From positions 50,779-114,778 of the IMG/VR virus record IMGVR_UViG_3300029448_007456: a stretch of 64,000 nt of DNA. One strand, written 5' to 3'. This DNA comes from a virus. Below are positions 40,950 to 60,019 of the stretch, piece after piece. The translations under genes were made by a program, and so were the position numbers. The number at the start of each line of letters is the position of its first letter. Within the stretch, counting starts at the first letter, position 1. The notes beneath the pieces were generated by a model. The model saw nothing but the letters and a program-made list of their open reading frames with translations, had not been told where the DNA came from and did not search any database.

Positions 40950-41021
40950 TTTTAGTCCTCCTGTCTATTGGCAAGGCGTGAGGTGCCCTGTGAATATGCT
41001 TCACATCGACCTCCATGGTAT

Positions 41022-42408: not shown

Positions 42409-42434
42409 AATATGTATAAACCAGGAGGTTGAAC

Positions 42435-43254: not shown

Positions 43255-43287
43255 AGTATTATCAAACAAAGACAAAGGAGGTCGTGT

Positions 43288-43915: not shown

Positions 43916-44234
43916 GGACGAAGGTGTTTATACTGTGGACTCAGACAAACTGTCTTATGGCTATGTTTCAGGCACATATCGAGATCAAGGTTGCATCACA
44001 GTGACATTCAATGATAGAGTGCAACAAGCATGGCATCCTCATCACAATCACAAAGGCGGTGACTTCAAAATCAAGCCAGAATTGATTGTGGACTTCTTGC
44101 AGAAGATAGGAGTCACTTTACATTTTCACACAGACCGAAAACATTCATACTGTAATAAAATTGAATTGAAGCCATGGTCTGAATTTGAACAAACTTTGAG
44201 ACAATCAATTGACAAAAACAAAGAATACAATTAA
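43881..44234 (+). CDS. early hypothetical protein
   Basis: Probable start MPKKNS. Confidence 0.55.
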   Translation: MPKKNSNKNPTKDEGVYTVDSDKLSYGYVSGTYRDQGCITVTFNDRVQQAWHPHHNHKGGDFKIKPELIVDFLQKIGVTLHFHTDRKHSYCNKIELKPWSEFEQTLRQSIDKNKEYN

Positions 44235-44243
44235 AATATAATC

Positions 44244-44477: not shown

Positions 44478-44594
44478 ATGTGGTGGCTTGAAGCCATAGG
44501 AGCCACACTACTCTTAGGAGCCATTATTGTATTAAACTGTTTGGTTTTATTCGATGATGGCAAACGCAATGGGTCGAAGTCCCGCAAGGACTAA
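44478..44594 (+). CDS. 38-aa single-TM peptide (not in ORF track)
   Basis: MWWLEAIGATLLLGAIIVLNCLVLFDDGKRNGSKSRKD. Confidence 0.5.
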   Translation: MWWLEAIGATLLLGAIIVLNCLVLFDDGKRNGSKSRKD

Positions 44595-44660
44595 GCAACA
44601 AATTTCATTCGACCTCCAATCAATGAAAGCAAGGCTCGGAACTAATCTTCCGGGCCTTTG
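44595..44660 (+). ncRNA. candidate anti-SD sRNA, copy 1 (3' UTR hairpin plus terminator hairpin)
   Basis: TTTCATT-CGACCTCCAATC-AATGAAA (44603-44628), identical at 59758-59783; then 11-bp hairpin 44631-44658. Confidence 0.6.
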
Positions 44661-44679
44661 TCATCTATAAGTATTTTTT

Positions 44680-45807
44680 ATGAACCTAGACAGCATAGAT
44701 CTTATCAAATTGACTGACGTGCAAAGACTTAAACTCAATTTAAGATTGCCAAAACCAGATCAAGAAATCATAGGCGATATGTCAGTTTTGCCTATGACCT
44801 TGCTAATGGGATGTCAAATAAAAATTTTGCCTGAAAATGATCTCAGGCAATGGTTGAAAAAAGAAAATTGTTTTTTATTGGATGGTAAAAAAATATCATA
44901 TCCTAGTTTTTCAAATGACGCCAGTGATGCCACACAAGATTTTATTGACATAGGTGGAGATCACTTTTGTATAGGTGACTCAAGTTTGGGTGGGAGATAT
45001 AAAAATCACGTTGACAGTTTTTATCCTTCAACATTTTTTGGATTTAGTGAAAAAAATTTATTAGATATACCAATTGAGCAAAGACAAGGCTGGTGTTGCA
45101 CGGTGTCAAAAAGACGTCCCACGAGAGATTGTATAATTGATATTATAAAATCCAAACATATGAACAAATTCCAAGGTAATGAATGGCTATGCTATGATGG
45201 TATCGATGAAAGTCAAAAAGAGATCATTGATTTGATGTTCAGAAGTCCTCAAGGAGGTAAAGCCGCTTTCATTGAATCTTGTGATGGTATAGATAACCAA
45301 CCATCAAGAAACTGGAGTGATCGCACGTTCACAGACACATTTGATAAGCACCAATCACACACAAATCAATTCCTAGGAGGCATCAAAAATTCCGCAGGTG
45401 GAGACCTAGGACATTTATTAGGTCCATGGCATAGGACAAGTTTGATTGAATTAGTATCAGAAGCAACAGTTGATTGGTTTGACCCATCTGAAAAAATGGC
45501 AAAACCTCTCAGAGCAGGTATGCCGTTTGTGGTGGTTGCCAGTCATAGATTTCTATACCGTCTGCGTAAAATGGGTTTGAAAACTTTCCATCCCTACATC
45601 AACGAATCATATGATACACAAGACAATTGGCGTAAACGCACAGAAATGGCAGTGGACGCCATGTTTGATTTTTCAAAATCTCCACAACAACTAGAACAGG
45701 TTGCAGAAATATGCAAACACAATCAAAACATCATGGTCAAGATTGGAAAACACAATAACCTTAAAAGAACTGCAAAAAAATTGAAAAGGCTCATAACTTT
45801 TTCTTGA
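44680..45807 (+). CDS. glycosyltransferase-like phage protein, paralog 1 of 3
   Basis: ELVSEAT..SEKMAKPLRAGMPFVVVA..LRKMGLKTFHPYINESYD; TATAAGTA 6 nt upstream. Confidence 0.65.
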   Translation: MNLDSIDLIKLTDVQRLKLNLRLPKPDQEIIGDMSVLPMTLLMGCQIKILPENDLRQWLKKENCFLLDGKKISYPSFSNDASDATQDFIDIGGDHFCIGDSSLGGRYKNHVDSFYPSTFFGFSEKNLLDIPIEQRQGWCCTVSKRRPTRDCIIDIIKSKHMNKFQGNEWLCYDGIDESQKEIIDLMFRSPQGGKAAFIESCDGIDNQPSRNWSDRTFTDTFDKHQSHTNQFLGGIKNSAGGDLGHLLGPWHRTSLIELVSEATVDWFDPSEKMAKPLRAGMPFVVVASHRFLYRLRKMGLKTFHPYINESYDTQDNWRKRTEMAVDAMFDFSKSPQQLEQVAEICKHNQNIMVKIGKHNNLKRTAKKLKRLITFS

Positions 45808-46832
45808 TGGATATCAATAAGATAGATACAACTAATTTGTCTCTTAGAGAGCAAATCCTTATCAATCAAAAACTACCACGGCCTAAACAAAATGTATTTG
45901 GTGATATCCAAGCATTTCCTGTCACATTCAGATTGGGTTGTAGAATAGAACTGTCTGACAAACCACAATGGCACGATGGCAACGCTCCTGCCATACTAAT
46001 TGATGGCAAAAAAGTAAATTGGGGGCCCGATTCAACCTTAGATTTTGAAAAAAATCCAAATGAATATCTACTGTGTATTGGAGAATCTTCACTTCACGCC
46101 AAATACTCCAATCATATTGATCATCTTTATTCGCCTTATCTTTGGAAGACTGGAGTGATGCAGGAACAGATATCACTGGCTCAAAGGCAAGGGTGGTGTT
46201 GCACCATGTTCCGTAAAGATCAACACAGAGATTATATCAGTGAACTGTTGATAACCAAGTACCAAAATCAATTCACAGGCTCGGAATGGTTTTGTTATGA
46301 TCAAGGCCACAACTTCAAAGATCTATTCAAACATATGTTTCGCAAACCTCATCGCAAAAGTCTACAAAATCTGCTTGGCTCGGGCAATATGGAATTATTG
46401 AAAACATTTCCAGTGATATCTGGCGATGCAGATCACAAATCATTAGGACCATGGCACGCACAGACTCTGGTTGAGTTGGTGCCCGAAACGACCACAAGAT
46501 ATTTTGACCCCACTGAAAAAATCTACAAACCAATATCAGCAGGTATGCCGTTTGTGATGGTTGCTAGTCAAGGATTTTTATATCGTCTGCGTAAAATGGG
46601 ATTCTGCACGTTCCATCCGTGGATAGATGAATCCTATGATCAAGAACCTAATTGGAAGATCAGAACAGAAATGGCTGTGGCGGCTATGTTTGAATTTGTT
46701 CAATCTCCAAACAATCTTGAACATATTCAATCTGTGTGTGATCACAATCAACAGACTTTCCGTCGCATCAGACGGCATGATTACTTGTCAAGGATTGCCA
46801 AAAAACTTCGGCCACTAATTACTATTGAATGA
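45807..46832 (+). CDS. glycosyltransferase-like phage protein, paralog 2 of 3
   Basis: ELVPETT..TEKIYKPISAGMPF..LRKMGFCTFHPWIDESYD. Confidence 0.65.
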   Translation: MDINKIDTTNLSLREQILINQKLPRPKQNVFGDIQAFPVTFRLGCRIELSDKPQWHDGNAPAILIDGKKVNWGPDSTLDFEKNPNEYLLCIGESSLHAKYSNHIDHLYSPYLWKTGVMQEQISLAQRQGWCCTMFRKDQHRDYISELLITKYQNQFTGSEWFCYDQGHNFKDLFKHMFRKPHRKSLQNLLGSGNMELLKTFPVISGDADHKSLGPWHAQTLVELVPETTTRYFDPTEKIYKPISAGMPFVMVASQGFLYRLRKMGFCTFHPWIDESYDQEPNWKIRTEMAVAAMFEFVQSPNNLEHIQSVCDHNQQTFRRIRRHDYLSRIAKKLRPLITIE

Positions 46833-47893
46833 AAACACTCACAGGCATTGACATAGACTCGTTGGATGAACGACAACTCATTCTGATCAACCAAAGGCTG
46901 CCAAAGCCTTGTGAACACATTATAGGTGATGTCAAATGCCTACCTGTCACACTAAGATTAGGATGTAGAATCGAAGTGAGCAATCATCAGGACCTTCATG
47001 GAGGCAGATGCAGAGTTCTTTACATCGAGAACAAAAAAATAGGTTTTGGATTTGATGCCACTAGAGATTTTCTATATGCAGACTATCACAAAGACTTTGA
47101 AATAGTGTATGGTGACGCTTGGTTGACTCCTCCACAATCTGGCCACGTCAATACTCTGTTGACTTGGTCGTTCTATCACACACAATGGTTGGATTCTGTG
47201 CCTTCTATTGCAGAACGCAGGGGTTGGTGTTGCACCATGACACGAGCAGATCGCCACAGGCACAAGATATTGGATGTCATAGCAGACAAACACATGACAG
47301 GATTCACAGGCTCAGAATGGTTTTGTTATGATGAGGCCACTCATCAAGGCCATCACAGACCTGAACTGTATCCTTTTATGTTCAGACAGCCTGCAGGCAT
47401 TGATCACACAAGTCTGACCAGAGATGAAAGGCAGAGATTTAGACACTACAAAAGGTTGTCAAACTATAATCCACACCCTTTTCACAATCATGGCCATAGT
47501 TTGGCTGAATGGCATCTGACCAATCTGGTTGAACTGTGCCCCACCGCCAACTTGGAATATTTTGAATTTGACGAAAAGATTGCCAAACCAATCGCCGCAG
47601 GTATGGCCTTTGTGGTGGTGGCCGCACAGAACACTCTGGCAAGACTTAGAAGGATTGGTTTTAGAACCTTTAATCCTTTGATTGATGAATCATATGATCA
47701 AGAACCTGATTGGCAAAGCCGCACAGAGAAGGCAGTGGATGCGATGTTTGAATTTGTCAGCGGAGCACACGATCATCAACAATTACAAGAAATCTGTGAT
47801 CACAACAGATCAGTGATGGCTAGACTGCAACGATACACCTATGAAGACCGAGTGGCCAAAAGACTTAGACCACTTATATCTTGGCCTTCATAG
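46829..47893 (+). CDS. glycosyltransferase-like phage protein, paralog 3 of 3
   Basis: DEKIAKPIAAGMAF..LRRIGFRTFNPLIDESYD. Confidence 0.65.
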   Translation: MKTLTGIDIDSLDERQLILINQRLPKPCEHIIGDVKCLPVTLRLGCRIEVSNHQDLHGGRCRVLYIENKKIGFGFDATRDFLYADYHKDFEIVYGDAWLTPPQSGHVNTLLTWSFYHTQWLDSVPSIAERRGWCCTMTRADRHRHKILDVIADKHMTGFTGSEWFCYDEATHQGHHRPELYPFMFRQPAGIDHTSLTRDERQRFRHYKRLSNYNPHPFHNHGHSLAEWHLTNLVELCPTANLEYFEFDEKIAKPIAAGMAFVVVAAQNTLARLRRIGFRTFNPLIDESYDQEPDWQSRTEKAVDAMFEFVSGAHDHQQLQEICDHNRSVMARLQRYTYEDRVAKRLRPLISWPS

Positions 47894-47911
47894 ACAGCGA
47901 TAATTACTTGT

Positions 47912-48007
47912 ATGACCTTACCTTTTGTTCAATCTTGTATAGATTGTGGTGCCATTGTGTCAGATTCTGACATCTGTCCTCAGTGTGGTCAAATCATGCC
48001 TAAATAA
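47912..48007 (+). CDS. 31-aa zinc-ribbon peptide (not in ORF track)
   Basis: MTLPFVQSCIDCGAIVSDSDICPQCGQIMPK, two CxxC motifs. Confidence 0.55.
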   Translation: MTLPFVQSCIDCGAIVSDSDICPQCGQIMPK

Positions 48008-48011
48008 CACG

Positions 48012-49418
48012 ATGACCATATGGCTTCTACAACTGCCCAGATTAGATGACACCTTCTCATGGGGTCTCAAAGAAATCGAACACATCCTCACAGAATTGAA
48101 TCAACCAGTCAAGGTGTTGGATATCAATCATGCCATCACCAAACGATTCCATGACACAGAACATTGGAACATCATAGAGGATTATGGCATTTTAGGCAAG
48201 TCATTACTGCCAATCGAAGATGTGAGATCCTCTGTTGCTGAAGTGATTGATGTGATTGCACCAGAGGACATTGTGTTGTCTTGTGTGTTCACGGTTGAAA
48301 GCAGAGCCTGGTTAACTTTGGTACACTCAATGCTGAGACTCAGGCACGGCAAGGAGGTGTTGTTAGGCGCAGGAGGACAAGGTGTGAGAGCACCTGGAGA
48401 AGAAGGCAATCAGAGTGAATGGGCAGACTGGACCTTGGCCATAGGCTTAAGTGACGTGATGTTCCTAGGCGAAACAGTCAAAACCATGGCAGATTGGGTT
48501 TCTAGTGGATTTTCACAGCGTGGCAAACAATATTTCGCACACGATGCCTTTCCTCATCTTGGATTTTTGCCACCACAATCACTGCAAGATGATCTAGACA
48601 GAAAAATTAATATACCTAATTATTATCACTATGATTATCGTCATGAAGGACAACGTGGTATCAAGATACATTTCACTCAAGGTTGTGTCAAACAATGCAC
48701 CTTCTGTGATGTTTGGCACACTTGGCCAAAATTTGTGATGCGAGAACCACTTGATGTGATCAAAGAGATCAACCATTACGACAAGAATGGTCAGGTCAGT
48801 CACATATCTTTTCCAGACAACACCATCAATGCAAGTAATTCTAAATTCATTGAACTGTTAGAAAGATTTTATGACTGGAAGGATCAACACAATCGCCATG
48901 ACATCACTTGGAGTTCACAGTTTGCAGTCAAACCTATCAATCAATTTGGAGATAAGATGTTTGAGTTGATTGCCGCCACCAAAGGACACCTGTCAGTTGG
49001 TTTTGATCACGTGAGCGACTCTGTGTTGACACACATGAAAAAATTGTATGGATGGCAAGACATCACAAGTTTTATTGAAAGATGCAATCAACATCAAAGC
49101 ATCATCTCAGTGGCTGTTTGGTTGGTAGGTTATCCCACTGAAACTGATCAAGACTTTGATCAATATCGCAAGTTGATTCCTTTGCTTCAACGCAAAAATA
49201 CCATTCTATCACATAACGTATCCATCACAGGCATCAATAGAAATTCTCCTTTGGAACGTATAGTCACAGTTGATCATTCTCGTCCAATGGATTGGCACAA
49301 TGCTTTGGTCAACAAACAAACCAGACAACAGAGAAAACACATCCTGGACAAGATGTTGTTGGAACACAATGCAAGTTATATGATGTATAGATCAACCTTG
49401 AAGAGAGCAGAAGCGTGA
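48012..49418 (+). CDS. radical SAM protein (B12-binding-like N-domain)
   Basis: TQGCVKQCTFC, VGYPTET; start MTIWLL 5 nt after TAAATA. Confidence 0.8.
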   Translation: MTIWLLQLPRLDDTFSWGLKEIEHILTELNQPVKVLDINHAITKRFHDTEHWNIIEDYGILGKSLLPIEDVRSSVAEVIDVIAPEDIVLSCVFTVESRAWLTLVHSMLRLRHGKEVLLGAGGQGVRAPGEEGNQSEWADWTLAIGLSDVMFLGETVKTMADWVSSGFSQRGKQYFAHDAFPHLGFLPPQSLQDDLDRKINIPNYYHYDYRHEGQRGIKIHFTQGCVKQCTFCDVWHTWPKFVMREPLDVIKEINHYDKNGQVSHISFPDNTINASNSKFIELLERFYDWKDQHNRHDITWSSQFAVKPINQFGDKMFELIAATKGHLSVGFDHVSDSVLTHMKKLYGWQDITSFIERCNQHQSIISVAVWLVGYPTETDQDFDQYRKLIPLLQRKNTILSHNVSITGINRNSPLERIVTVDHSRPMDWHNALVNKQTRQQRKHILDKMLLEHNASYMMYRSTLKRAEA

Positions 49419-49825
49419 TCACATCTGGCGAGTTTGTGGTGCACATTGATTATGATTTGTCTCCCATTGTGATGATATCTGCAGACAAAAAAATTCTCAT
49501 CAACAAAACATTGCCTGACCAAGGAAGCATCACTGTGACCATACCAAATCAAACCAGCCTTGTGAGAATGTTCATACAAGGCAAACTCAATGACACCATT
49601 GTCAAGGATGGTGTGATTGTGAGAGATCAAATGATCAAGATCGTTGGTGCAGAACACCAAGGCATTCAGTTTGATGAACCGCACTTTCTCAATCTTGTCA
49701 AACCACGTCTGCATCATCAAGACACAGTGATGCCCTCTGTGTATCTTGGTTATAATTTTCCTTCGTATCTTGAATTCAAACCTCGTGCTTTGGCTGACGC
49801 ATTAATTGACTCCACTGTTGGTTGA
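49415..49825 (+). CDS. hypothetical partner of radical SAM; paralog of 550..1119
   Basis: GTGA coupling; NDTIVKDGVIVRDQMIKI motif. Confidence 0.6.
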   Translation: MITSGEFVVHIDYDLSPIVMISADKKILINKTLPDQGSITVTIPNQTSLVRMFIQGKLNDTIVKDGVIVRDQMIKIVGAEHQGIQFDEPHFLNLVKPRLHHQDTVMPSVYLGYNFPSYLEFKPRALADALIDSTVG

Positions 49826-49855
49826 CACAATACCAACTGGCTTTACAATAGGAGT

Positions 49856-50083
49856 ATGAAAGTTGACAAACAAACACTTCGCCACTTCAAAGTCTTTCTG
49901 GAGCAACAGAAATCAGTGATGGAAAGTGCTATGGATGGTGACGAACTCAATACCAATACAAGTTATTATGGTTGGTATGAGGCCACTAATCATTACATCA
50001 AAGTCATTGAAAAATCTGAAAAAAACCCCAATTATTCGTTCTTTTACGGGGACTTGACAGATTGGAAAAAGGAATTATTATAA
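49856..50083 (+). CDS. early hypothetical protein, leaderless
   Basis: TTGACA(49822)-N16-TACAAT-6 nt-ATG. Confidence 0.65.
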   Translation: MKVDKQTLRHFKVFLEQQKSVMESAMDGDELNTNTSYYGWYEATNHYIKVIEKSEKNPNYSFFYGDLTDWKKELL

Positions 50084-50111
50084 TATTAATTAATCGACAA
50101 GGAGGTCGCAA

Positions 50112-50321
50112 ATGGGAGAAGTAAAATCCTGGGCAATGGATCAAGAAGATGAATTCTATGAAATTGCTATTAGAGAATCAAACAATCACATAGACTATCA
50201 GACATTTGAAACACACATGGTTGAGACCTATGGTGATATGATTATTAGTGCCCCAGAAGAAGTCTTACAGAATCTTGGCATGATATATGGAGAGCATACA
50301 CAGGAGGTGGGTCATGCCTAA
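50112..50321 (+). CDS. early acidic protein
   Basis: Promoter TTGACA(50054)-N16-TATTAT; GGAGGTCG RBS. Confidence 0.7.
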   Translation: MGEVKSWAMDQEDEFYEIAIRESNNHIDYQTFETHMVETYGDMIISAPEEVLQNLGMIYGEHTQEVGHA

Positions 50322-50958
50322 TTGGTGTTCCAACACAGTTGAATTCATAGGCAGTCCTTCAAAAATTGAAAAGATTAGAAAGGCTGTAGAAGAAGATGGT
50401 TTGTTTCAGTCTTTGGTTCCTATGCCTGATGCATTAAAAGACTCGGTATCTGGTTCTGAATCGGCTAAGCCTGATTGGCAGAAGGAAAATTCTGCTCAAC
50501 TAATAAAGGAACATGGTGCAGACAATTGGTATGATTGGAATATAAAAAACTGGGGGACCAAGTGGGATGCCACAGAACCTTGTATTGATGACATATCCAT
50601 TGATTGGCTAAATCCGAAATTATCCAGCATCCAAGTTAGTTTTGAAACTGCATGGTCACCGCCAACTAGATTCTATGATGCATTGTTAGATCAGATGACT
50701 GCAAAAGGCAAGGACTTTTCAATCTATGCCACATACTATGAACCAGGTGTTGACTTCATGGGGGTGTGGTCAGATGGTGACGATAGAACTTATAGTGTTG
50801 AAGAGCAAGAGGATGAGTTCTTCACAGATCACGAAGATGGCGAAAGCATTAATGCTCATTATAGTATACTTGAACAAAGGATTACGGACCGTGAAAACGA
50901 ACTTGAAGAAGTTCAAGAATGGTATGAAGATGGTAAGAAGGAGTTGAATCTTGCTTAA
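50314..50958 (+). CDS. DUF1281/YubB ferredoxin-like family protein
   Basis: MPNWCSN, WYDWNIKNWGTKWD, FETAWSPP, YYEPG. Confidence 0.8.
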   Translation: MPNWCSNTVEFIGSPSKIEKIRKAVEEDGLFQSLVPMPDALKDSVSGSESAKPDWQKENSAQLIKEHGADNWYDWNIKNWGTKWDATEPCIDDISIDWLNPKLSSIQVSFETAWSPPTRFYDALLDQMTAKGKDFSIYATYYEPGVDFMGVWSDGDDRTYSVEEQEDEFFTDHEDGESINAHYSILEQRITDRENELEEVQEWYEDGKKELNLA

Positions 50959-51115
50959 CCTACTAGAAGTTTTGAAAGCAGATCTTAAGATATTAAAGTC
51001 TGCTATCAAGAATCCAGATGCTCCTCACTCCACCGATGAGCAGATCAATAGGATGATTAAGATGGTGGATCAAATGATAAAGGAGGCTAAGAATGGCAAT
51101 AAACGGAAAAGTTGA
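50951..51115 (+). CDS. 54-aa protein (TTG start, not in ORF track)
   Basis: AAGGAG RBS; fills gap and overlaps both neighbours. Confidence 0.5.
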   Translation: MLNLLEVLKADLKILKSAIKNPDAPHSTDEQINRMIKMVDQMIKEAKNGNKRKS

Positions 51116-51356
51116 TACATTGAAGTTTTGGTTCTTACCAAGAAAATGTAGAACACTATTAGAGCAACACAAGGCACACCCATTAGAAAAGGCAGTGGCC
51201 AAACAGATCCCAATCAGTGGCAATGAAGAAACCATTGAACAGTTGGTGCAGATGTTGAAACTGAAAAGGCGTTTCAGAGGTCCTAGAACACAACTGACAT
51301 TCATGAGAGATTGTGTCAAGGCAGATGCTGAACGTGTTTCTCTTTATAACAAATAG
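51093..51356 (+). CDS. early hypothetical protein
   Basis: AGGAGG RBS; RRFRGPR..DCVKADAERVSLY. Confidence 0.65.
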   Translation: MAINGKVDTLKFWFLPRKCRTLLEQHKAHPLEKAVAKQIPISGNEETIEQLVQMLKLKRRFRGPRTQLTFMRDCVKADAERVSLYNK

Positions 51357-51541
51357 TGGCAAAGTCAAAAACACATTACAAAGATCCTAACAGACGATCC
51401 AATTGGTTCAAAGGGGAGCAGGTGCCTACAAGGCGTCTTCCCCAGGAACGAGCCAAACGGTTTGATGAACTAATAGAATCTGGCCTATCTGAAGCAGAAG
51501 CATTGGCTAGAGCATTGGAAATTATCCCAAAACATCGCTAA
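51356..51541 (+). CDS. early hypothetical protein
   Basis: Start overlaps upstream stop. Confidence 0.55.
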   Translation: MAKSKTHYKDPNRRSNWFKGEQVPTRRLPQERAKRFDELIESGLSEAEALARALEIIPKHR

Positions 51542-51562
51542 AATCAACAGTTCTCGTGGTGG

Positions 51563-51590
51563 TTGACAGATTACCATATGGTAATACTAT
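51563..51590 (+). promoter_or_regulatory. early promoter containing a perfect 16-bp palindrome
   Basis: TTGACA, G, ATTACCATATGGTAAT (51570-51585), TACTAT. Confidence 0.85.
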
Positions 51591-51596
51591 AATAGT

Positions 51597-51983
51597 ATGA
51601 CAACAACAAACACATTCATCAAAGAGAACTTTTCTTACTCAGGTGGATATTTGACATATGATGATGGAGTTGATAGACATTTTATCGCTCGTTTCAAGTA
51701 TGTTCCTAAATCATCTGCCACAAAGTTTATGAACTTTTTGATCAAAAACTTCACTTGTGAAGAATACTTGGAGAGAGCCAATCAAGAGGCTCCGCTCACA
51801 ATATTGGAGAGCAAAGGTTATTGCTCTCCTGAAATGGCCAGATTGGCTCGTAGATGGGGATATGCTCCTACTCTTGCAAATGCTCATCAGGCTCTGATTG
51901 ATCAAACCAATCAGGATTTGGTTGGAATGGGTAAAGATCCAATAACACCACAGCAGGCGGAGGAATTTTTACAGTCTGCCTAG
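51597..51983 (+). CDS. conserved early phage protein, leaderless
   Basis: FIARFKY..FLIKNFTCEEY..APLTILESKGY. Confidence 0.7.
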   Translation: MTTTNTFIKENFSYSGGYLTYDDGVDRHFIARFKYVPKSSATKFMNFLIKNFTCEEYLERANQEAPLTILESKGYCSPEMARLARRWGYAPTLANAHQALIDQTNQDLVGMGKDPITPQQAEEFLQSA

Positions 51984-52043
51984 TTGACAGATTGTAGATT
52001 GGTAATATTATAATAATAAGACAACAACAAGGAGGTCGTTGAT

Positions 52044-52343
52044 ATGGGATTTGAAAGAAGAGCAAACATTACAATAAAAGAAGAGTTCATCGAACATTTT
52101 GGCTTTGATTGCACTCCAAGACTAGAATGGACAAACGGATGTCTGTTCGCAGATACTTCTAGCAAAGAAGAAGTTCAATTGATTAAAGAAACACTCGAGT
52201 GGTATTCCGGTGGCTACAAGGTGATTGTATCTTGTTTGAAGGCCACAGACACTGAACCATGGGATCAGTATGCATTTGACATCACTGACGAAAAGTTTGA
52301 AAGCACATGGTCAGAATTTTCAGAGGAAGGATTATTAGCATGA
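52044..52343 (+). CDS. early hypothetical protein
   Basis: Promoter TTGACA(51984)-N16-TATTAT; GGAGGTCG RBS. Confidence 0.7.
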   Translation: MGFERRANITIKEEFIEHFGFDCTPRLEWTNGCLFADTSSKEEVQLIKETLEWYSGGYKVIVSCLKATDTEPWDQYAFDITDEKFESTWSEFSEEGLLA

Positions 52344-52519
52344 TTAAACAGATAGTTGGCATCAACGAAAACTTCAGCAAAAGGGATCAAGAATATGTCT
52401 CTGAACTGATATGGGAAACTGTCCAAGAACAGGACGCATTCAAAGACTCAAAGGGCATCACAGGTATTTCATATACCATAACAGTGGATGTCCAAGAAGA
52501 GGAGGAAGACCATGCTTAG
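52340..52519 (+). CDS. early acidic protein
   Basis: ATGA coupling. Confidence 0.6.
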   Translation: MIKQIVGINENFSKRDQEYVSELIWETVQEQDAFKDSKGITGISYTITVDVQEEEEDHA

Positions 52520-52877
52520 ATGGGACAACAGAGAGCGTCAATACCATGCACCCTTTGACATCATCATTCAAACAATACCAGAGGAAGTCCGCATCAGAGA
52601 CATGTTTGATGATTCCATCAATCCAGACACAGGCAAATCATACTATGATGTTGACTACATGGAACAACAGGTTGAGAATGGTTCAGCAGAATGGTCAGTG
52701 GTTAATGTTCAGTGTATGCTGAATGGCGTTGAATTAGGGTCATTTGCCATAGGGGGTGCTTATCTGGATGAACACTATGATTTGATGTCATTTGTTTACG
52801 ACAATGGCATGATTGACGAAGCGAAGAATGATGCTAAAATATGGTTAGACAACACAAAGGAGGTCGTGTATGCTTAA
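52512..52877 (+). CDS. early hypothetical protein
   Basis: GGAGG RBS; start MLRWDN. Confidence 0.65.
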   Translation: MLRWDNRERQYHAPFDIIIQTIPEEVRIRDMFDDSINPDTGKSYYDVDYMEQQVENGSAEWSVVNVQCMLNGVELGSFAIGGAYLDEHYDLMSFVYDNGMIDEAKNDAKIWLDNTKEVVYA

Positions 52878-53028
52878 AGAACATGAAGAATATGTGGATC
52901 CAGGAGAAGGATACTCATCAGAAAACAAATGGAAAGTGGCCTATCAGATACTGATGGACTATTTTGAAGACTTGCCTGAACAGACTCAACAGGAAGCAGA
53001 TGAAAGATTGAAGGCGGTGGATTTATGA
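52870..53028 (+). CDS. 52-aa acidic protein (not in ORF track)
   Basis: GGAGGTCG RBS; MLKEHEEYVDPGEG..AYQILMDYFEDLPE.. Confidence 0.7.
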   Translation: MLKEHEEYVDPGEGYSSENKWKVAYQILMDYFEDLPEQTQQEADERLKAVDL

Positions 53029-53270
53029 GTGATATCATTACATCAGACGGTCTGACTCGTCAACAACTCATCGATCGTTTGGTTGCAGACGATGTAAGGC
53101 TGATGATGAAAGGTGCTGGAGCAAATGACTTTGGATTTGTGGCACACAGATTTGAACATGGCTTCAAAGGTTATGACAATATGTCTGATGGTGAATTAGC
53201 CTTGGAATGGCGTGAGATCAGTGAATATTGGAATGACACAGAACAGGAGAGAATGTATGATGTGGCTTAA
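53025..53270 (+). CDS. early hypothetical protein
   Basis: ATGA coupling; GFKGYDNMSDGEL. Confidence 0.65.
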   Translation: MSDIITSDGLTRQQLIDRLVADDVRLMMKGAGANDFGFVAHRFEHGFKGYDNMSDGELALEWREISEYWNDTEQERMYDVA

Positions 53271-53475
53271 AGGAGACAGAGTTAAGACTATCACAGAACC
53301 ATACATCACAGGCATTGTGGTTGAAGATCTTGGCAACAAGGTTGTGATTGAAGATGATCACGCAGAAACTGATGATTGCAGACTAGAGTTTCACAAAAGT
53401 GATTTGGAAGTATTCAAAGGTGGCCAGTATCATCCAGTAGATGGCAACACATGGAAAGAGATCATAGGTTATTAA
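53257..53475 (+). CDS. early hypothetical protein
   Basis: AGGAG RBS; KGDRVK..GIVVED. Confidence 0.6.
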   Translation: MMWLKGDRVKTITEPYITGIVVEDLGNKVVIEDDHAETDDCRLEFHKSDLEVFKGGQYHPVDGNTWKEIIGY

Positions 53476-53530
53476 ACGTGAGACTTGTGAACTTGGTGTT
53501 TGGGGCACACAAAATTGGCAACTCGATCCT

Positions 53531-53899
53531 ATGGCTTCTTGGCTATGGAACCGCCAAGGTACGCCATGGTGGGAAACAAAATATATGGGGCATTTTGGAC
53601 AAGTGAAAGATCCTAAACATTCAGAATTGATGGAGTTAAGATCATCTGCATCAATCAAAACATCAGCAGAATATGGAGGCATAACCTTCCAGCATCAAGA
53701 TGGTGAAATAGAAGAATACGATGGGTGGCAAGTCAGATTAAATGGCTACAAGTTTCCTAGGCCAAGATATGACTTTCATTCTGAAACATGGGATTGGAAA
53801 GCAAGATATGAAACACCTAATACTCCTGAAGGCAAACAAGAGGCCATTGACCTTGCTGTGCGTCAAAGTGGGCATTGGTGGGGAGAAATGTTGAGATGA
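53531..53899 (+). CDS. early hypothetical protein (start uncertain, possibly GTG 53603)
   Basis: Ends overlapping next ATG. Confidence 0.5.
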   Translation: MASWLWNRQGTPWWETKYMGHFGQVKDPKHSELMELRSSASIKTSAEYGGITFQHQDGEIEEYDGWQVRLNGYKFPRPRYDFHSETWDWKARYETPNTPEGKQEAIDLAVRQSGHWWGEMLR

Positions 53900-55056
53900 C
53901 AGAAGAGAACAAACAGGTTGAGGAATTAAGTTATCCTTTCAATCCAAAACTGCGAGACAGAGAGGACTCAAAATTAGAAATTTTGAATCCATTGCAGAAT
54001 ACAAAAAAGAAACTGGTGCCATTAGCAGATAGAGTTAAACAATTGAGAAGGTCTAACCTATGGAAGGCCCAAATGAGAAATTGGAAAGATAATAACAAGT
54101 TTATGAATGTGGACTTACTCCCTAAGATTAAAAAGTTTAGATTAGGTGACACTATGATTGATGAGGACATACAAAGACTCTTAGTGACTGAGGCTTGTTC
54201 AAATAGAATATGTCATTATCAGAAGTTTGGTGAATATTACATACAAACACCTTATGTTCAAGTGATGTCAGATGGAACAATTAAGAATATTAATGGTCAA
54301 CATACCACAACGGTTGTGGCTACTTTAATAGAAGAAGGACGAGTAAAAGGATATACAGGTGCTTGGCAAGACTTTGAATTGGAAATGGCTTATATAGAAA
54401 CAGACAATGATGCCATTGCTAGAAGAGCCTTTAATCTTTGGAATGGTGCAGGGCAAGAAAAACAGACACCATTTAATATTTTGAGAGGTAAAGTTCTTTC
54501 AGTAAGAGTTGATGGAGATAGAACTTTTGAAGACGAAGTTGAAGCAGAAGAAAGACTTTCGGCTGTTGAAGAAAATTTAAGTTTTCCTGTTCCAGCAGAA
54601 AATTCATTGGCTCATCTTCCTGGGGCTTTCACTAACTTTGGAACATACAATTTAATGGATAAGACGGCAGTGGCAGAGGCATCTAGATGGCACAATGAAT
54701 ATTTCCATCATAAGACAATCCATGTATCTTTGTGGTTCATATTTAAAGACTTTGGTGATGCAGAAGGATTCAGTTATGACAACAAATTTTTGAAAGAGAT
54801 TGCAGGGTTGGTTAAAACTTATTTTGATGATTTAAGTGAATTTGCTTTATCTTACAAGAATGTCTATCAAAAATATTATTTAGATATCAACAATGTAAAG
54901 GTGAAGACTGCTCCGGACAAAGGATATGCCTGTGCCTTATTGCAATTATACAAGGCAAACGGTGGTAAACAGAAATTGCCTGCAGAAATATTGAATAGAT
55001 ACCCAGACCTTGTTGACTATTGGGATGATAGTTATAAGCAGGGTGGCGATGAATAA
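53896..55056 (+). CDS. hypothetical protein with ParB/DGQHR-like motif
   Basis: EDIQR..INGQHT..ARRAFNLWNG. Confidence 0.55.
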   Translation: MTEENKQVEELSYPFNPKLRDREDSKLEILNPLQNTKKKLVPLADRVKQLRRSNLWKAQMRNWKDNNKFMNVDLLPKIKKFRLGDTMIDEDIQRLLVTEACSNRICHYQKFGEYYIQTPYVQVMSDGTIKNINGQHTTTVVATLIEEGRVKGYTGAWQDFELEMAYIETDNDAIARRAFNLWNGAGQEKQTPFNILRGKVLSVRVDGDRTFEDEVEAEERLSAVEENLSFPVPAENSLAHLPGAFTNFGTYNLMDKTAVAEASRWHNEYFHHKTIHVSLWFIFKDFGDAEGFSYDNKFLKEIAGLVKTYFDDLSEFALSYKNVYQKYYLDINNVKVKTAPDKGYACALLQLYKANGGKQKLPAEILNRYPDLVDYWDDSYKQGGDE

Positions 55057-55438
55057 AAATTATAACCTATATACCATAATCAATAGGATAGGTAGGCCTG
55101 GGTTTGGCATAGCCACAGACCTAGATGGTAGACAATGGCACTATATTGATCACTCCGGTGATTGGATGTATATGCCTATAACCTGGAGCGGCAATGAACA
55201 TCATATTAGATCGTTGGAGAAGGATTGCAAAAGACAATTTTTTGATGTTCGATGGAAACCACACGAAGCAAAGAAAAAGAGAGAATGGCTAGACGACAAT
55301 TACCTAGGTCCTAAAGGAACAGAGTTTGATCAGACAGGAGTAAAGACTATCATTGATTATATCAAATCAGAAATTGAAAAAAGTGATTTAGATATCCAAA
55401 TACTTCATGAAAATTATAAAGTCCACGAAATATATTAA
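55049..55438 (+). CDS. hypothetical protein, GIY-YIG-like
   Basis: LYTI..GFGIATDLDGR..Y..LE..REW; overlaps upstream gene. Confidence 0.5.
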   Translation: MNKNYNLYTIINRIGRPGFGIATDLDGRQWHYIDHSGDWMYMPITWSGNEHHIRSLEKDCKRQFFDVRWKPHEAKKKREWLDDNYLGPKGTEFDQTGVKTIIDYIKSEIEKSDLDIQILHENYKVHEIY

Positions 55439-55534
55439 TAAAAAGTCATATTTTATGCGACTTTTTAGTAGGTTGACACATTACCATCAGAATATATTAT
55501 AATATTAACAACAAAAACAACAAGGAGGTCGTTT

Positions 55535-55921
55535 ATGTTAGATACTTTAGAAAAGAACAAAGAATTACTTCAGTTTAATGCTGGAGGCGTTGAACCAGGT
55601 AGAATATGGATCGAGGCTAGTGAGGCTGGCAAGAAAGCGGTGCATGATTACCTCGCTGAACATGAAGAGCCAATGTATTGTGGTTTTGCCAATGTTAAGA
55701 TTCGTCCTGCAAAAGGATCATTTGTGAAATGGTTGAAAGAAAGAAAAATTGGTGACAAAGGTTGGAATGGTGGATACTCCATATCCTACTATGACTTCAT
55801 GGGTGATGTCCGTGAGTCTTTCACACAGTCAATGGACTTGAAAGAAATGGGTTGTGATGCATTTGTGGCCGTGTTGAGAAAGTATGGCATGGATGCTTAC
55901 ATGGAAAGTAGGGCAGACTAG
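55535..55921 (+). CDS. conserved early phage protein
   Basis: Promoter TTGACA(55473)-N16-TATTAT; GGAGGTCG RBS; CGFANVKI..TQSMDLKE..SRAD. Confidence 0.75.
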   Translation: MLDTLEKNKELLQFNAGGVEPGRIWIEASEAGKKAVHDYLAEHEEPMYCGFANVKIRPAKGSFVKWLKERKIGDKGWNGGYSISYYDFMGDVRESFTQSMDLKEMGCDAFVAVLRKYGMDAYMESRAD

Positions 55922-55985
55922 TTGACAGATTGTTGATTGGTTTTATAATAGTATTAAGAAAACATTTTACACAAGGAGGTCGTAA

Positions 55986-56501
55986 ATGGCAACAAGAGCA
56001 AGAATAGGATTACAAAAAGAAGATGGCACAATCATTGCCTCATATCAACATTGGGATGGTTATCCTGGTGGACTTGGATACAATCTAGAAGATCACTGGA
56101 CCGATTCTCAGAAAGTCGGTGAAGCAATTGAATTGGGCAACTCATCCAAGTGGGGTCAGTTCATTGGCACCAAGATTGATTTTGATGATAGGGATTGCGA
56201 GACTTATGAATATCAGAATGTCTACTACATGAGAGACAGAGGTGAAAAAGATCAAGAGGCAAGAGTCTACAAAGACGAAGCAGACTACTTGGCAAATGGC
56301 TTCAACTCAGGCGAAGAATACATCTATCTCATGAAGGTGGACACAGGCAAGACTGACTACTTGGGCAAGGCCAGAGGCGAATGGTTCTATGCTGACTACA
56401 ACAATCAGACAATGAAGCCATTAGAAGCAGACGCCATCCATGAGCATATTGAAATGCTCAAGAGACATCTTGAAAGAATGAAGGAAAGGAAGGTGGCATA
56501 A
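55986..56501 (+). CDS. conserved early phage protein (HWDGYP family)
   Basis: Promoter TTGACA(55922)-N16-TATAAT; GGAGGTCG RBS; MATRARIG..YQHWDGYP..EYIYL. Confidence 0.8.
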   Translation: MATRARIGLQKEDGTIIASYQHWDGYPGGLGYNLEDHWTDSQKVGEAIELGNSSKWGQFIGTKIDFDDRDCETYEYQNVYYMRDRGEKDQEARVYKDEADYLANGFNSGEEYIYLMKVDTGKTDYLGKARGEWFYADYNNQTMKPLEADAIHEHIEMLKRHLERMKERKVA

Positions 56502-56983
56502 TGCAGTGGTATCACAAAGACAAAGATCCAAGAATGGATGAAAGGTCAGCAAGACTACACGCAAGAATGATCAAGAAACATCTTGTGGCACAAAACTATC
56601 ACGATGACGTCAATGTGGCCAGAGCCTCAACTTATGTGACTTGGGACTATGGCAAGAAAAAATGGTGTGAAGTGGATCATCTCATGTTTCATGTATTGAC
56701 TGTGGCTCAACCCACAGACACAAGACAGCAACTGGAGGATAGAGTATGTGGCGATGTGGCAAAGTATCTTAAAAATTTTAGTCTTTACAAAAGTGCCAAG
56801 ATCTATGTGACCACAATGGACATGGAACATCCTGAATGGGACTATGGCAAGGACAAAGGTCAACCAAAATATTATCAAACCACTCTTCATATTCAAGAAT
56901 GTAATGCCACAGACTTGGCCATTAGAGGACATGATCATGATTACTTTGATTTAGGTGGTGAAAACTTGTTAGAAGTGGCGTGA
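56501..56983 (+). CDS. early hypothetical protein
   Basis: TAATG coupling. Confidence 0.6.
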   Translation: MQWYHKDKDPRMDERSARLHARMIKKHLVAQNYHDDVNVARASTYVTWDYGKKKWCEVDHLMFHVLTVAQPTDTRQQLEDRVCGDVAKYLKNFSLYKSAKIYVTTMDMEHPEWDYGKDKGQPKYYQTTLHIQECNATDLAIRGHDHDYFDLGGENLLEVA

Positions 56984-57204
56984 ACAAATACATCAAATTC
57001 AAAACCAGATACATTGATATCCCAGGTGTTAATTTGAAAGGACATCCTTTTGTGGGTGTCACTTATCCTTTTGAATCTAAATCATCGCCAGGCAAGACAC
57101 ATCATGTCCATGTCACAGAACAAGGACTGACCTGCGAATGTATTGGATTTTCACGTCATGCCAACTGTTGGCACTCCAAGAAAGTGGCCAGCAAGATAAG
57201 ATGA
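56980..57204 (+). CDS. SWIM zinc-finger protein
   Basis: CECIGFSRHANCWH (CxC..CxH). Confidence 0.75.
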   Translation: MNKYIKFKTRYIDIPGVNLKGHPFVGVTYPFESKSSPGKTHHVHVTEQGLTCECIGFSRHANCWHSKKVASKIR

Positions 57205-57383
57205 AAACTTGTCCCAAATGTGAATCATACATTGATGATGAACAAGACAAATGTCTTAAATGTGAAGAAGACCACACTTTTTCTTTTGGTATCAAAGTAT
57301 CAAGGAGCAAAAAAGAAGAAGCCAAGAAGATTGAATGGGACGAAAAACCAAATGAACAGAATTGTGGAGTGAGAAAAAATTGA
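57201..57383 (+). CDS. small zinc-ribbon protein
   Basis: MKTCPKC..CLKC; ATGA coupling. Confidence 0.6.
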   Translation: MKTCPKCESYIDDEQDKCLKCEEDHTFSFGIKVSRSKKEEAKKIEWDEKPNEQNCGVRKN

Positions 57384-57530
57384 ATTTTGAAAAACTATTT
57401 GGATTGATCACGTTGGTATTGATATCAATAATCCTTTTGACTCATTTGATGTGATTGACAGATACAAGATATAGTGTATCCTATGCATAGGAGGAACAAT
57501 TTTATTAACCCGCAACCAAAGGAGTTTGCA

Positions 57531-57833
57531 ATGACCAAAACACTAAGAACAATGGATTTCGGCAGTGTATTGTTTGGTGCCTCGATTGTGATATTGGCTA
57601 TCACTGTTTTTCTAGGCTCTGCTTCAATCACCAAGAACTCTATACAAAAAAAAGAACGCATGAACAATCTCGAAGGAGACATTGATTATCTAATGATGGA
57701 GGTTGATTACTTGGAACAAAGAATCGACGAAATGATGTTGAGAATTAAGAGTAGGGACAATGAGGCAGGACGTGTGTTTGAAAGACTATTTGATGAAATG
57801 ATGACACATGGATCAAAAGCCACAGACAAGTAA
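57531..57833 (+). CDS. TM plus coiled-coil protein
   Basis: Promoter TTGACA(57455)-N16-TATCCT; AAGGAG RBS. Confidence 0.65.
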   Translation: MTKTLRTMDFGSVLFGASIVILAITVFLGSASITKNSIQKKERMNNLEGDIDYLMMEVDYLEQRIDEMMLRIKSRDNEAGRVFERLFDEMMTHGSKATDK

Positions 57834-58038
57834 TGACAACAGTCAAGCCAGTGGCAAGACCATCCGTAAAGGCATGATCATCACTGGCTTGGGCACAGAA
57901 ATAACCAAATGGATGTTTGACGATTTTGAACAGGTGGAAGACTTTTATATTAATAATATCGATAAATGGAGACTCCAAGATAAAGTGACTAAAGTGATAG
58001 GAACAAATATTTTGGTTTACAATAAAACAAATGGCTAA
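57808..58038 (+). CDS. early hypothetical protein
   Basis: Overlaps neighbours. Confidence 0.5.
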   Translation: MDQKPQTSNDNSQASGKTIRKGMIITGLGTEITKWMFDDFEQVEDFYINNIDKWRLQDKVTKVIGTNILVYNKTNG

Positions 58039-58993
58039 TCATGTTGGTTCACATCTATATTTTTTAAGAATTAATGCCAAGGCCAAAGAAAAGTTGGCCA
58101 TGATGCTGAGATGGAACGAAATGCAACAAGGCAGAGGGCAATTAGAAAACTTTCATGAACTAATGGAACACGCCCCAGAGCATCCAGACTATGAATGGTA
58201 TCATGACCACATAGGACCCAAATGGTGCTTCTTCGAAGAGTATGACCTTGATCGAATTCACTGCACGTCTGCATGGGGCTGGCCTGAAAAAGGATTCAAC
58301 TGGATTGTGTCTGAATTGAGAAAAGAGGATCCAAATCTGTTGGCACAATGCACCTATGAAGATGAAGCACCTTGTTTCTATGGCGTGGCAGGATGGGGAC
58401 CTCGAGGCTATGAGGATTACTATATGGATATTGAAGAAGGCAAGGATTGTTTTAAAAAATTAGGCGATAGATTCAACTTTATACAGCCATATCTACAAGA
58501 AAATGAAGACGAGGAAATGCCAGAAGAATATCATGAGAATTTGTGGGAAGCAATTGAGATTCATCAAGACATGATGTGGCAAGAGTGTAGAGGGGATGTT
58601 GAACCATATGAAGAAGATGAAATACAAGAAACAGATAGATTTCCTACTGCTGAAGAAAGATGGCCCAGAGCAGGCGAAATAATACCAGAAGATAGAAAAG
58701 TTAAAGTGCCTTTTAGATTCGACTCAAAAGGATATGATCAATCAGGGCAAGAATATATTGAATTAGTGGATGGTGGTTCCGATGGTTATGATGATGGCAA
58801 AGACTTTCATGGTGCATGGTGGGAAACAATTCCTGATTCAAAAGAATATGGCACGATACGAAATTCTGTTGATGCTCAACAAGGTGACTATGATAGAAAG
58901 TCCGACGCTTCTGGTATACAATGGTTGGATCATCATGCACAGGCTTACAACGACGAATTCAACCGTTCGAAAAAGAAAACCAAGGATGATTGA
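58031..58993 (+). CDS. acidic protein, distant DUF1281-like
   Basis: MANHV..WYHDHIGPKW..SAWGWP..YEDE parallels 50314..50958. Confidence 0.6.
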   Translation: MANHVGSHLYFLRINAKAKEKLAMMLRWNEMQQGRGQLENFHELMEHAPEHPDYEWYHDHIGPKWCFFEEYDLDRIHCTSAWGWPEKGFNWIVSELRKEDPNLLAQCTYEDEAPCFYGVAGWGPRGYEDYYMDIEEGKDCFKKLGDRFNFIQPYLQENEDEEMPEEYHENLWEAIEIHQDMMWQECRGDVEPYEEDEIQETDRFPTAEERWPRAGEIIPEDRKVKVPFRFDSKGYDQSGQEYIELVDGGSDGYDDGKDFHGAWWETIPDSKEYGTIRNSVDAQQGDYDRKSDASGIQWLDHHAQAYNDEFNRSKKKTKDD

Positions 58994-59023
58994 CACATTT
59001 GGAAACGGTGTTAAAATATTAAT

Positions 59024-59233
59024 ATGAACATCACAGGAATAGTCACAGGCTTTTGGATGGCCCTATCAGGTGGCAATGATGGCAACATCACTGCTGGACA
59101 AGTTCTGCAAACTGCTCAAACAGTTTATGCCATTCAACAGAAAACAGAAGCAGGCACTTGGGATGAATCGTGGCATGAAGAGTCACATCAAATGGTCAAA
59201 GACACATTGAGGAGGATACAATATGAACAGTAG
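59024..59233 (+). CDS. early hypothetical protein, leaderless
   Basis: TTGACA(58990)-N16-TAAAAT-6 nt-ATG. Confidence 0.6.
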   Translation: MNITGIVTGFWMALSGGNDGNITAGQVLQTAQTVYAIQQKTEAGTWDESWHEESHQMVKDTLRRIQYEQ

Positions 59234-59438
59234 AACCGTAGAGCGATGCAATAATATGTTGAGAGCATTGTATGATGAAAGAACAGAACTAGAAACAGAC
59301 ATTGAGTTGGCTGGAGGCAATTGGTTAGCCATTCTGGAAGACCAACTGCATGATCTCAATAATTCAATCAAAGAACTTGAAAGACAACTGCATGAAGCAG
59401 AAGCAGAAAATTTAGAACAGATGAGGCAGGTGATCTAA
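59223..59438 (+). CDS. small coiled-coil protein
   Basis: GAGGAGG RBS. Confidence 0.65.
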   Translation: MNSRTVERCNNMLRALYDERTELETDIELAGGNWLAILEDQLHDLNNSIKELERQLHEAEAENLEQMRQVI

Positions 59439-59572
59439 TGAAATTGATCATTGGTTTTGCCATAGGTTATTTTGTGGCCACCACACCCATTGGACAGGAG
59501 ATGCTTCCCACCGTGCAGGCATATTCTGTGCAACTGTTAGAATGGATTACCAACACAGTAAGGAGTATATGA
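59438..59572 (+). CDS. 44-aa membrane peptide (not in ORF track)
   Basis: TAATG coupling; MKLIIGFAIGYFVATTPIGQEM.. Confidence 0.6.
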   Translation: MKLIIGFAIGYFVATTPIGQEMLPTVQAYSVQLLEWITNTVRSI

Positions 59573-59754
59573 TGGCAGATGTAAAAATTAAAATGAGTGC
59601 CGACGATCTTTCGCAGGCCATAGGAGAATATCTCTACAACAGGAAGAAACTGCCTGTGGGCATGGAAGAAGCATCAGTTGGTTTCAAAGTGGAGGACGGA
59701 GAGTTCGTAATCACAGTATCAACAGATCAGATACCGTCGATGACTCTAAATTAA
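59569..59754 (+). CDS. early hypothetical protein
   Basis: TAAGGAG RBS, ATGA coupling. Confidence 0.65.
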   Translation: MMADVKIKMSADDLSQAIGEYLYNRKKLPVGMEEASVGFKVEDGEFVITVSTDQIPSMTLN

Positions 59755-59832
59755 CAGTTTCATTCGACCTCCAATCAATGAAACTCGTGGGCGGACTTTC
59801 GTCATGAATGCTAGTTCGCCTGCGTTTTATTT
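59755..59832 (+). ncRNA. candidate anti-SD sRNA, copy 2 (3' UTR hairpin plus intrinsic terminator)
   Basis: AGTTTCATT-CGACCTCCAATC-AATGAAACT (59756-59785), then 12-bp hairpin 59786-59824 with three G-U pairs and a U tract. Confidence 0.65.
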
Positions 59833-59982: not shown

Positions 59983-60019
59983 CAGTTGACACATTCCAAA
60001 GGAGAAGTAAACTAAAAAC

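Follow-up and report, generated by a model that had tools for sequence, protein, structure and literature searches.

The final 64 kb of the 114,778-bp viral contig IMGVR_UViG_3300029448_007456, a 64,000-nt window in whose positions all coordinates below are given, carries at two sites an identical 26-nt hairpin, which we call HP1. We find that HP1 is a real RNA-level element, ultraconserved and new to the databases, that belongs to an uncultured lineage of marine jumbo phages. It lies just 3' of the last stop codon of two early operons, and its apical loop is complementary to the Shine-Dalgarno (SD) sequences of seven early leaders of the same phage. The best explanation that we can offer, and we offer it tentatively, is that HP1 is a self-sequestered hairpin directed against ribosome-binding sites (RBSs), namely those of the SD-led early leaders of this phage. 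The contig is 34% complete according to CheckV, so the full phage genome is probably larger than 300 kb.

The HP1 element and its conservation

The two copies of HP1 (44603..44628 and 59758..59783, both on the plus strand) agree over the whole of TTTCATT-CGACCTCCAATC-AATGAAA, a 26-mer that occurs exactly twice in the contig, 15,155 bp apart, with a chance expectation of 0.00. No third copy is present at up to three mismatches, either in the window or in the whole contig. In the minimum-energy fold, HP1 is a 7-bp A/U stem followed by C8, the sole bulged base, and by the pairs G9-C19 and A10-U18, which close a 7-nt apical loop, CCUCCAA; at copy 2 the flanks extend the stem to 9 bp (59756-59785). 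Each copy stands a few nucleotides past a stop codon (TAA at 44592-44594, 8 nt before copy 1; TAA at 59752-59754, 3 nt before copy 2) and directly before a second, GC-rich hairpin, HP2. The two-hairpin unit folds with -21.5 kcal/mol at copy 1 and -27.3 kcal/mol at copy 2 on the plus strand (z -4.2 and -4.6, respectively), compared with -20.4 and -19.2 kcal/mol on the minus strand. These results bear out a preliminary description of the same DNA, made from its letters alone, which had reported an identical pair of 26-mers with unrelated flanks, placed between a stop codon and a GC-rich hairpin and belonging to the 3' untranslated region (UTR) of the plus strand.

The stop codons close two small open reading frames (ORFs) on the plus strand. 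U1 (44478..44594), upstream of copy 1, is a 38-aa hydrophobic (membrane) ORF; U2 (59569..59754), upstream of copy 2, is a 61-aa ORF with an ATGA-coupled start. Neither belongs to a Pfam family at an E value of 1 or below, and U2 has no PHROG family. The AlphaFold2 model of U2 (pLDDT 75.5) gave no clear fold match, its best structural match, at Z 3.0, being uninformative, and we dropped U2 as a candidate RNA-binding protein.

Conservation beyond this genome was assessed by scanning JGI/ENA metagenome contigs with the pattern TTTCATT-NNN-CCTCC-NNNN-AATGAAA, which fixes 19 of the 26 HP1 positions and leaves seven loop positions free. At least 118 contigs, nearly all of them marine, matched. The HP1 family among them comprises at least 87 instances including those of the window, in 63 to 65 distinct contexts among the matches listed, and thus the search of the whole contig and its relatives that the preliminary description had called for found the element well outside the genome in which it was first seen. 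The other matches are ordinary gene starts (an RBS followed by ATGAAA) on the opposite strand of unrelated organisms. Since the pattern itself fixed the remaining positions, and lineages with an altered stem would escape retrieval, the invariance of the loop is the only unbiased conservation result. Among the matches listed, the seven free positions read CGA/AATC across the family and AGA/AATC in five loci; that is, six of the seven are invariant, and the sole substitution, C8 to A, falls at the predicted bulge. No variant copies of HP1 were found in 585 kb of family loci.

By tblastn with the neighbouring ORFs, practically every HP1 context is orthologous to one or the other of the two sites in the window. 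Orthologues of U1 with 45 to 92% identity lie upstream of HP1 in at least 31 metagenome loci, those of U2 with 34 to 90% identity do so in at least 41, and the genes 3' of the HP1 sites share 25 to 96% identity between relatives. In clear cases the stop codon is 1 to 8 nt upstream of HP1. Within the two-hairpin unit, the plus strand folds better than the minus strand in 42 of 63 contexts. HP1 would thus appear to be under strong sequence selection, judging from the fact that it is unchanged at two separate loci while the adjoining proteins fall to about a third identity.

Searches elsewhere were negative. Cultured phages gave no match to 20 kb of the window by megablast or to a 38-nt HP1 query by blastn, and single-protein scans of IMG/VR did not find a close relative. 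Three further IMG/VR scans found no member of the family: one with the loop and inner stem returned a single match, a genuine RBS that an unrelated phage has on the opposite strand; one with a degenerate hairpin returned three, all RBS-type by chance; and one with the HP2-flank motif returned 51 chance matches. A scan of GTDB genomes returned one chance match (an RBS on the other strand), its pattern holding part of the 3' arm and being blind to targets that match HP1 nt 1-19 only, the complement of which is GATTGGAGGTCGAATGAAA; as far as this pattern reaches, HP1 appears not to be host-borne. The expectation that the hairpin would not fall into a described RNA family also stood up: no Rfam family reached gathering score, whether in the window or in 10 relatives, and nothing relevant was found at an E value of 10 or below on either HP1 copy. 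ARAGORN found no tRNA or tmRNA in window positions 1-64000, where Rfam at gathering score was likewise empty. Full-text literature matches to the loop sequence were unrelated primers only. A likeness of HP1 to the tRNA T-arm or to the h45 tail of 16S rRNA, considered by eye, was unconvincing.

The partner hairpin, HP2, is conserved as a structure. A helix of 9 to 15 bp begins 0 to 4 nt after HP1 in all 65 distinct downstream sequences listed, with a mean folding energy of -18.9 kcal/mol versus -7.8 kcal/mol for shuffles; its sequence varies freely between lineages, with compensating changes in the alignment. In the window, HP2 of copy 1 (44629..44661, plus strand) follows HP1 directly and has a weak U tract (UUUGUCAU), after which come TATAAGTA and the ATG at 44680, and HP2 of copy 2 (59786..59832, plus strand) is a terminator-like 12-bp GC-rich hairpin with a UUUUAUUU tract. 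Five or more U residues within 8 nt after HP2 are found in just 5 of the 65 contexts, so HP2 is at best a weak intrinsic terminator in most lineages, where it may be a 3'-end stabiliser rather than a terminator. The genes 3' of HP2 nearly always have their own promoter, either leaderless or of the TATAA(A/G)TA type.

One U2-type sub-lineage carries a conserved C/U-rich motif, ACCUAUCCUUA, in a large HP2 loop (loci L097, L100, L111, L117, L121, L125, L131, L135, L136, L147, L162, L173, L180, L182, L183, L192, L199, and L202-L204); the HP2 hairpins of the window are without it. Pairing of this motif with the RBS of the upstream gene, AGGAUAGG, was considered and rejected: the match is found in four loci, L121, L131, and L204 keep the loop with another RBS, and there is no covariation.

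Early promoters and the complementarity of HP1 to their leaders

The block from 42 to 60 kb contains a plus-strand series of near-consensus sigma70 promoters (TTGACA-N16/17-TAnnnT) of two kinds. In the first kind, exactly 6 nt separate the end of the -10 hexamer from the ATG, a leaderless geometry (-10 end/ATG at 44237/44244, 49849/49856, 51590/51597, 59017/59024, 59895/59902, and 60013/60020, for example). This geometry holds at about 16 promoters in the contig and recurs in the metagenome relatives, in agreement with the earlier proposal that many mRNAs of this phage are leaderless. The final promoter upstream of HP1 is of this kind in the window and in every long relative; it lies at 44209..44237 before copy 1 (plus strand, TTGACA-17-TAAAAT, with the ATG 6 nt on) and at 58990..59017 before copy 2 (plus strand).

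Promoters of the second kind have a leader of about 27 nt, ...GACAA-GGAGGTCG-NNN-ATG, and the recurrence of GGAGGTCG in these leaders identifies it as one component of a promoter-leader cassette that is used repeatedly. By chance, 0.18 occurrences of GGAGGTCG would be expected in the window; there are nine, of which six are on the plus strand, one is on the minus strand, and two are the complements of the HP1 loops. Each of the six plus-strand sites lies 3 to 5 nt upstream of an ATG, with a TTGACA-N16-TAnnnT promoter about 20 nt further upstream, and all are real RBSs, just as the preliminary description had it. They are our candidate target leaders, at 43277..43284 (a short promoter-proximal leader, ATG 43288), 50101..50108 (ATG 50112), 52031..52038 (ATG 52044), 52859..52866 (ATG 52870), 55524..55531 (ATG 55535), and 55975..55982 (ATG 55986). 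A seventh candidate on the same strand, at 42424..42431 (ATG 42435), is of the GGAGGTTG class and pairs with the HP1 loop through one G-U, which confirms the pairing noted earlier.

The minus-strand occurrence of GGAGGTCG (41007..41014) is at the 5' end of a transcript whose promoter -10 ends at 41026. At 41004-41026, this transcript begins ...AUGGAGGUCGAUGUGA..., which is GGAGGUCG plus a start-stop AUG-UGA (ATG-TGA in the DNA), upstream of a real RBS at 40961. The unit of GGAGGTCG and AUG-UGA is kept in loci L168, L171, and L189.

For all seven plus-strand leaders, RNAduplex predicts the same mode of pairing with HP1 nt 1-15, namely, 8 bp over GGAGGUCG, a bulge of 2 to 4 nt, and 3 to 7 bp over the AUG region, with one G-U in the duplexes of the GGAGGUUG leaders. 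The pairing of both loop and 5' arm with SD and AUG, which had been suggested as possible, is thus predicted throughout the SD-led early leaders. The predicted duplexes have energies of -16.4 to -19.9 kcal/mol, the best being that at 50101..50108, and the net gain after unfolding of both partners is -9 to -14 kcal/mol. The seven leaders are seven of the top eight predicted HP1 targets among the 344 ORF starts in the contig, and no target with longer complementarity, beyond 8 to 10 bp, was found elsewhere in the contig. When the canonical textbook sequence is used for the 16S rRNA tail, the leaders bind the HP1 loop alone at about -16 kcal/mol versus about -13 kcal/mol for the 16S tail, whereas for a canonical SD the order is reversed (16S tail, -23; HP1 loop, -11).

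The leaders, both the window's seven and those of relatives, also form a mini-hairpin of their own that partly sequesters the SD and leaves GGAG in its loop. This mini-hairpin covaries, being closed by GAC..GUC in the GGAGGUCG class and by CAACC..GGUUG in the GGAGGUUG class. GGAG held in such a loop would suit a loop-loop contact with HP1.

The relatives share the promoter-leader cassettes; on the strand of HP1, GGAGG is followed by TCG more often than by any other triplet. Of 57 RBSs in contigs with HP1, 49 have C or U at position 7 after GGAGGT, either of which can pair with G9, and in 34 CG or TG follows; in the other phage loci compared, a pyrimidine is found at this position in about half. 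GGAGGT[C/T]G leaders accompany HP1 through the lineage, and HP1 is absent from an outgroup phage, L257 (318 kb, 91% complete, with an AAA ATPase 45% identical), in which GGAGGTCG occurs once.

The anti-RBS reading and its rivals

In the reading that we favour, HP1 and HP2 would together form a conserved RNA module in the 3' UTRs of two early operons that are started by leaderless promoters, with HP2 serving as a terminator or 3'-end stabiliser whose sequence is free to change. The apical CCUCC of HP1, extended by G9-A10 and C8, would nucleate pairing at GGAGGU[C/U]G, the SD of the conserved early leaders; the weak A/U 5' arm, UUUCAUU, would then open and pair with the start-codon region. The RBSs of the SD-led subset of early mRNAs would in this way be occluded in trans, and possibly in cis too, and leaderless and SD-less phage mRNAs would not be bindable by HP1. 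G9, A10, U18, C19, and the CAU/AUG arms would be frozen because their pairing is needed both in the hairpin and with the target.

A more elaborate version, which we hold to be rather doubtful, is that of a private SD/anti-SD code. The extended SD, GGAGGUCG, used by a subset of early mRNAs, would be only a moderate fit to the ribosome; a frozen hairpin of the toehold type, lying in the 3' UTRs of a pair of leaderless operons, would bind SD and AUG more tightly than the ribosome; and the build-up of 3' fragments would shift translation from SD-led early mRNAs to leaderless and SD-less ones. The ideas in the preliminary description that the RNA acts as a built-in timer and perhaps silences host mRNAs are purely speculative. 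If the pairing is true, HP1 would be a compact and portable RNA switch, consisting of 26 nt plus any terminator, and a virus would be seen to grade its own translation by class of initiation signal, SD-led versus leaderless. A viral member embedded in 3' UTRs would also join the anti-SD riboregulators, of which mainly bacterial ones are known so far. Whatever the mechanism, HP1 is among the most conserved noncoding sequences seen in these phages. It can readily serve to mark this abundant lineage of uncultured marine jumbo phages, and it is sharply enough defined to lend itself to reporter assays and structure probing.

Several points weigh against the anti-RBS reading. A stable HP1 RNA, its pairing with the leaders, and the resulting repression are all steps that we infer. 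The covariation of loop and RBS between phages that had been proposed as a check was not seen: loop and leader cores are both frozen, with no compensatory change. The lineages with the only loop variant, A8, still have GGAGGTCG leaders, and lineages with GGAGGTCA leaders (L115) keep C8, so position 8 looks dispensable. The leaders' own covarying mini-hairpin accounts for UC(G), and hence HP1 is not needed to explain TCG. The invariance of the 7-bp stem cannot be judged, the stem having been fixed by the search pattern. The promoters of the HP1-bearing operons look as early as those of the targets, so a timer would need slow accumulation, processing, or differential stability. Lastly, A16 and A17 are invariant in the loop yet lie opposite mismatches in the leaders, and just two copies of HP1 per genome are seen.

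These last two observations count in favour of the main rival, which we consider unlikely, though less so than the other alternatives. It takes HP1 for a recognition hairpin, bound by a protein, RNA polymerase, or an RNase and steering termination, read-through, processing, or stability at the two operon ends, as a nut/boxB-like, put-like, or RNase-entry site would; the likeness to an RBS would then reflect ancestry, as an inverted copy of a leader, and not function. Such a site could explain why all of the loop bases are frozen, including the two that are unmatched in the leaders, and why HP1 keeps to fixed syntenic positions abutting a terminator-like HP2, most examples of which are without a proper U tract and might need a helper. 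The base preceding HP1 is always a purine in the listed contexts, giving R-N|W-U-U, which is an RNase E-type context. Against the recognition hairpin stands the lack of a candidate binding protein, U1 being a membrane peptide and U2 belonging to no family and reaching no more than Z 3 in fold matches, although no search was aimed at N-like proteins. Most of the downstream genes are served by a leaderless or late-type promoter of their own and would not need control of read-through. That the loop is a better fit than the 16S tail to the private extension of the leaders is left to chance or ancestry.

It seems improbable that HP1 is a DNA site, whether an operator whose half-sites would be TTTCATT and AATGAAA, a signal for recombination or replication, or a pair of repeats bracketing the 15-kb early block. 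The perfect 7-bp inverted repeat and the spacing of two direct copies 15,155 bp apart would fit such a role, and GGAGGTCG taken as double-stranded DNA is one motif in either orientation. However, the orientation of HP1 relative to transcription is constant in all listed instances, it always stands 1 to 8 nt past a stop codon and abuts an RNA-type hairpin with G-U pairs, and its nonpalindromic spacer is frozen like the arms. There is no sign of mobility: no integrase or transposase family was found among the ORFs scanned with Pfam and PHROGs, a scan that most small ORFs of the block fell outside of, and the early block uses the same promoters as the remaining genome.

We give still less credence to HP1 as a mimic of the 16S rRNA 3' tail that titrates a factor binding the anti-SD, such as bS21. 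ACCUCC is indeed common to HP1 and the 16S tail, but its flanks differ from those in the tail (5' G, not C; 3' AAU, not UUA) and match the leaders instead.

Least probable of all is a functional minus strand, on which the reverse complement of the 26-mer reads as a textbook RBS (an SD, 4 nt, and AUG-AAA, within a hairpin) that could be a decoy for ribosomes or for a regulator, or could open a mini-ORF, and similar strings in unrelated genomes are real gene starts, but nothing is kept after ATGAAA, with no conserved ORF or stop position, no minus-strand promoter is nearby in the window or the relatives, the plus strand folds better, and the mini-ORF itself, five codons long at both window copies, was rejected as not conserved in any relative.

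Related systems and neighbouring features

The nearest functional analogue of HP1 would be the CcsR1-4 or "cuckoo" RNAs of Alphaproteobacteria (ar14 family, NfeR1), which have anti-SD hairpin loops and which RNase E cuts out of the 3' UTR that follows a 71-aa ORF (PMC8034643, PMC4615179). In both cases, the mRNA that carries the anti-SD loop in its 3' UTR encodes a small protein (71 aa versus 38 and 61 aa). RNase E frees the cuckoo RNAs in A/U-rich surroundings, and a terminator marks their 3' end, whereas for HP1 only the 3'-UTR position and the R-N|W-U-U context are seen. The loop motif is CCUCCUCCC in the cuckoo RNAs and CGACCUCCAAUC in HP1 (at least 87 instances; AGACC... in five loci). 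A cuckoo unit has two motif hairpins, and units occur in tandem; HP1 is a single motif hairpin at each of two sites, with CCUCC confined to HP1. The HP2 loops are short and variable (large, with ACCUAUCCUUA, in the one sub-lineage). The upstream ORF encodes DUF1127 in the cuckoo RNAs (CIN1 context), as opposed to the U1 and U2 proteins here, which are without a family. The cuckoo RNAs are bacterial and stress induced and vary outside the motif, whereas HP1 is a phage early element frozen in sequence, and it is not matched by the cuckoo covariance model of Rfam at gathering score. HP1 thus departs from the cuckoo RNAs in every feature that could be tested: the motif, the two motif hairpins, the DUF1127 neighbour, and the Rfam model.

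What HP1 does have in common with anti-SD riboregulators in general is an exposed C-rich stretch complementary to defined SDs, here the CCUCCAA loop with 8 bp to each of seven leaders. In the C-rich-loop small RNAs of Bacillota (the hairpins of RNAIII, and RsaE/RoxS), apical loops pair with G-rich SDs, some by loop-loop contact with a hairpin in the target. The leaders here, too, place GGAG in a small loop. Those RNAs, however, are stand-alone host genes, whereas HP1 is a 26-nt module inside phage mRNAs, with no homology to them.

Among phages, P1 C4, P4 CI, and the 3' end of the T7 gene 1.1/1.2 mRNA are RNAs that derive from early transcripts or 3' ends and pair with start regions of early genes in the same phage. 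C4 and CI, which serve immunity in temperate elements, originate in the leader of the very operon under their control, and the T7 1.1/1.2 effect operates in cis and comes to light through RNase III processing. Unlike HP1, none of them is a hairpin frozen across many lineages.

The early regions of T4-type phages contain PeSL cassettes, which are repeated units of a stem-loop, a sigma70 promoter, an SD, and an ATG; there are many per genome, they differ between phage pairs, their stem-loops are simple GC or A/T clamps, and their proposed role is in recombination or shuffling (PMC2839356, PMC4122927). The GGAGGTCG promoter-leader units resemble PeSL promoters with their conserved SD, and the succession of HP2 and a promoter is also PeSL-like. 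HP1 is unlike a PeSL in that there are two per 114.8 kb, at fixed syntenic sites and identical across deep divergence, rather than many near-identical units flanking variable ORFs.

A few neighbouring features merit mention in their own right. Between 44680 and 47893 on the plus strand lie three tandem paralogues of about 340 to 375 aa, with no Pfam or PHROG family; the first of them (ATG 44680) is preceded by TATAAGTA, a late-type box 5 to 6 nt upstream. The C-terminal part of these proteins has hundreds of distant homologues in IMG/VR phages; in two loci with homologues of the 375-aa gene (L005 and L006), neither synteny nor HP1 was found. A 490-aa radical SAM protein (PF04055, E 8e-14) is encoded at 47946-49418 on the plus strand, within the early block and between the two hairpins. 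Past copy 2, a leaderless-type promoter at 59868-59895 is followed by a 37-aa hydrophobic ORF (59902-60015, plus strand) with a sub-threshold Pfam match to CbtB (E 0.0034), which may well encode a small membrane peptide. In the outgroup phage L257, positions 3360-3890 of that locus hold a long array of repeats of about 23 aa, MORN-like by eye, directly upstream of the AAA ATPase gene.

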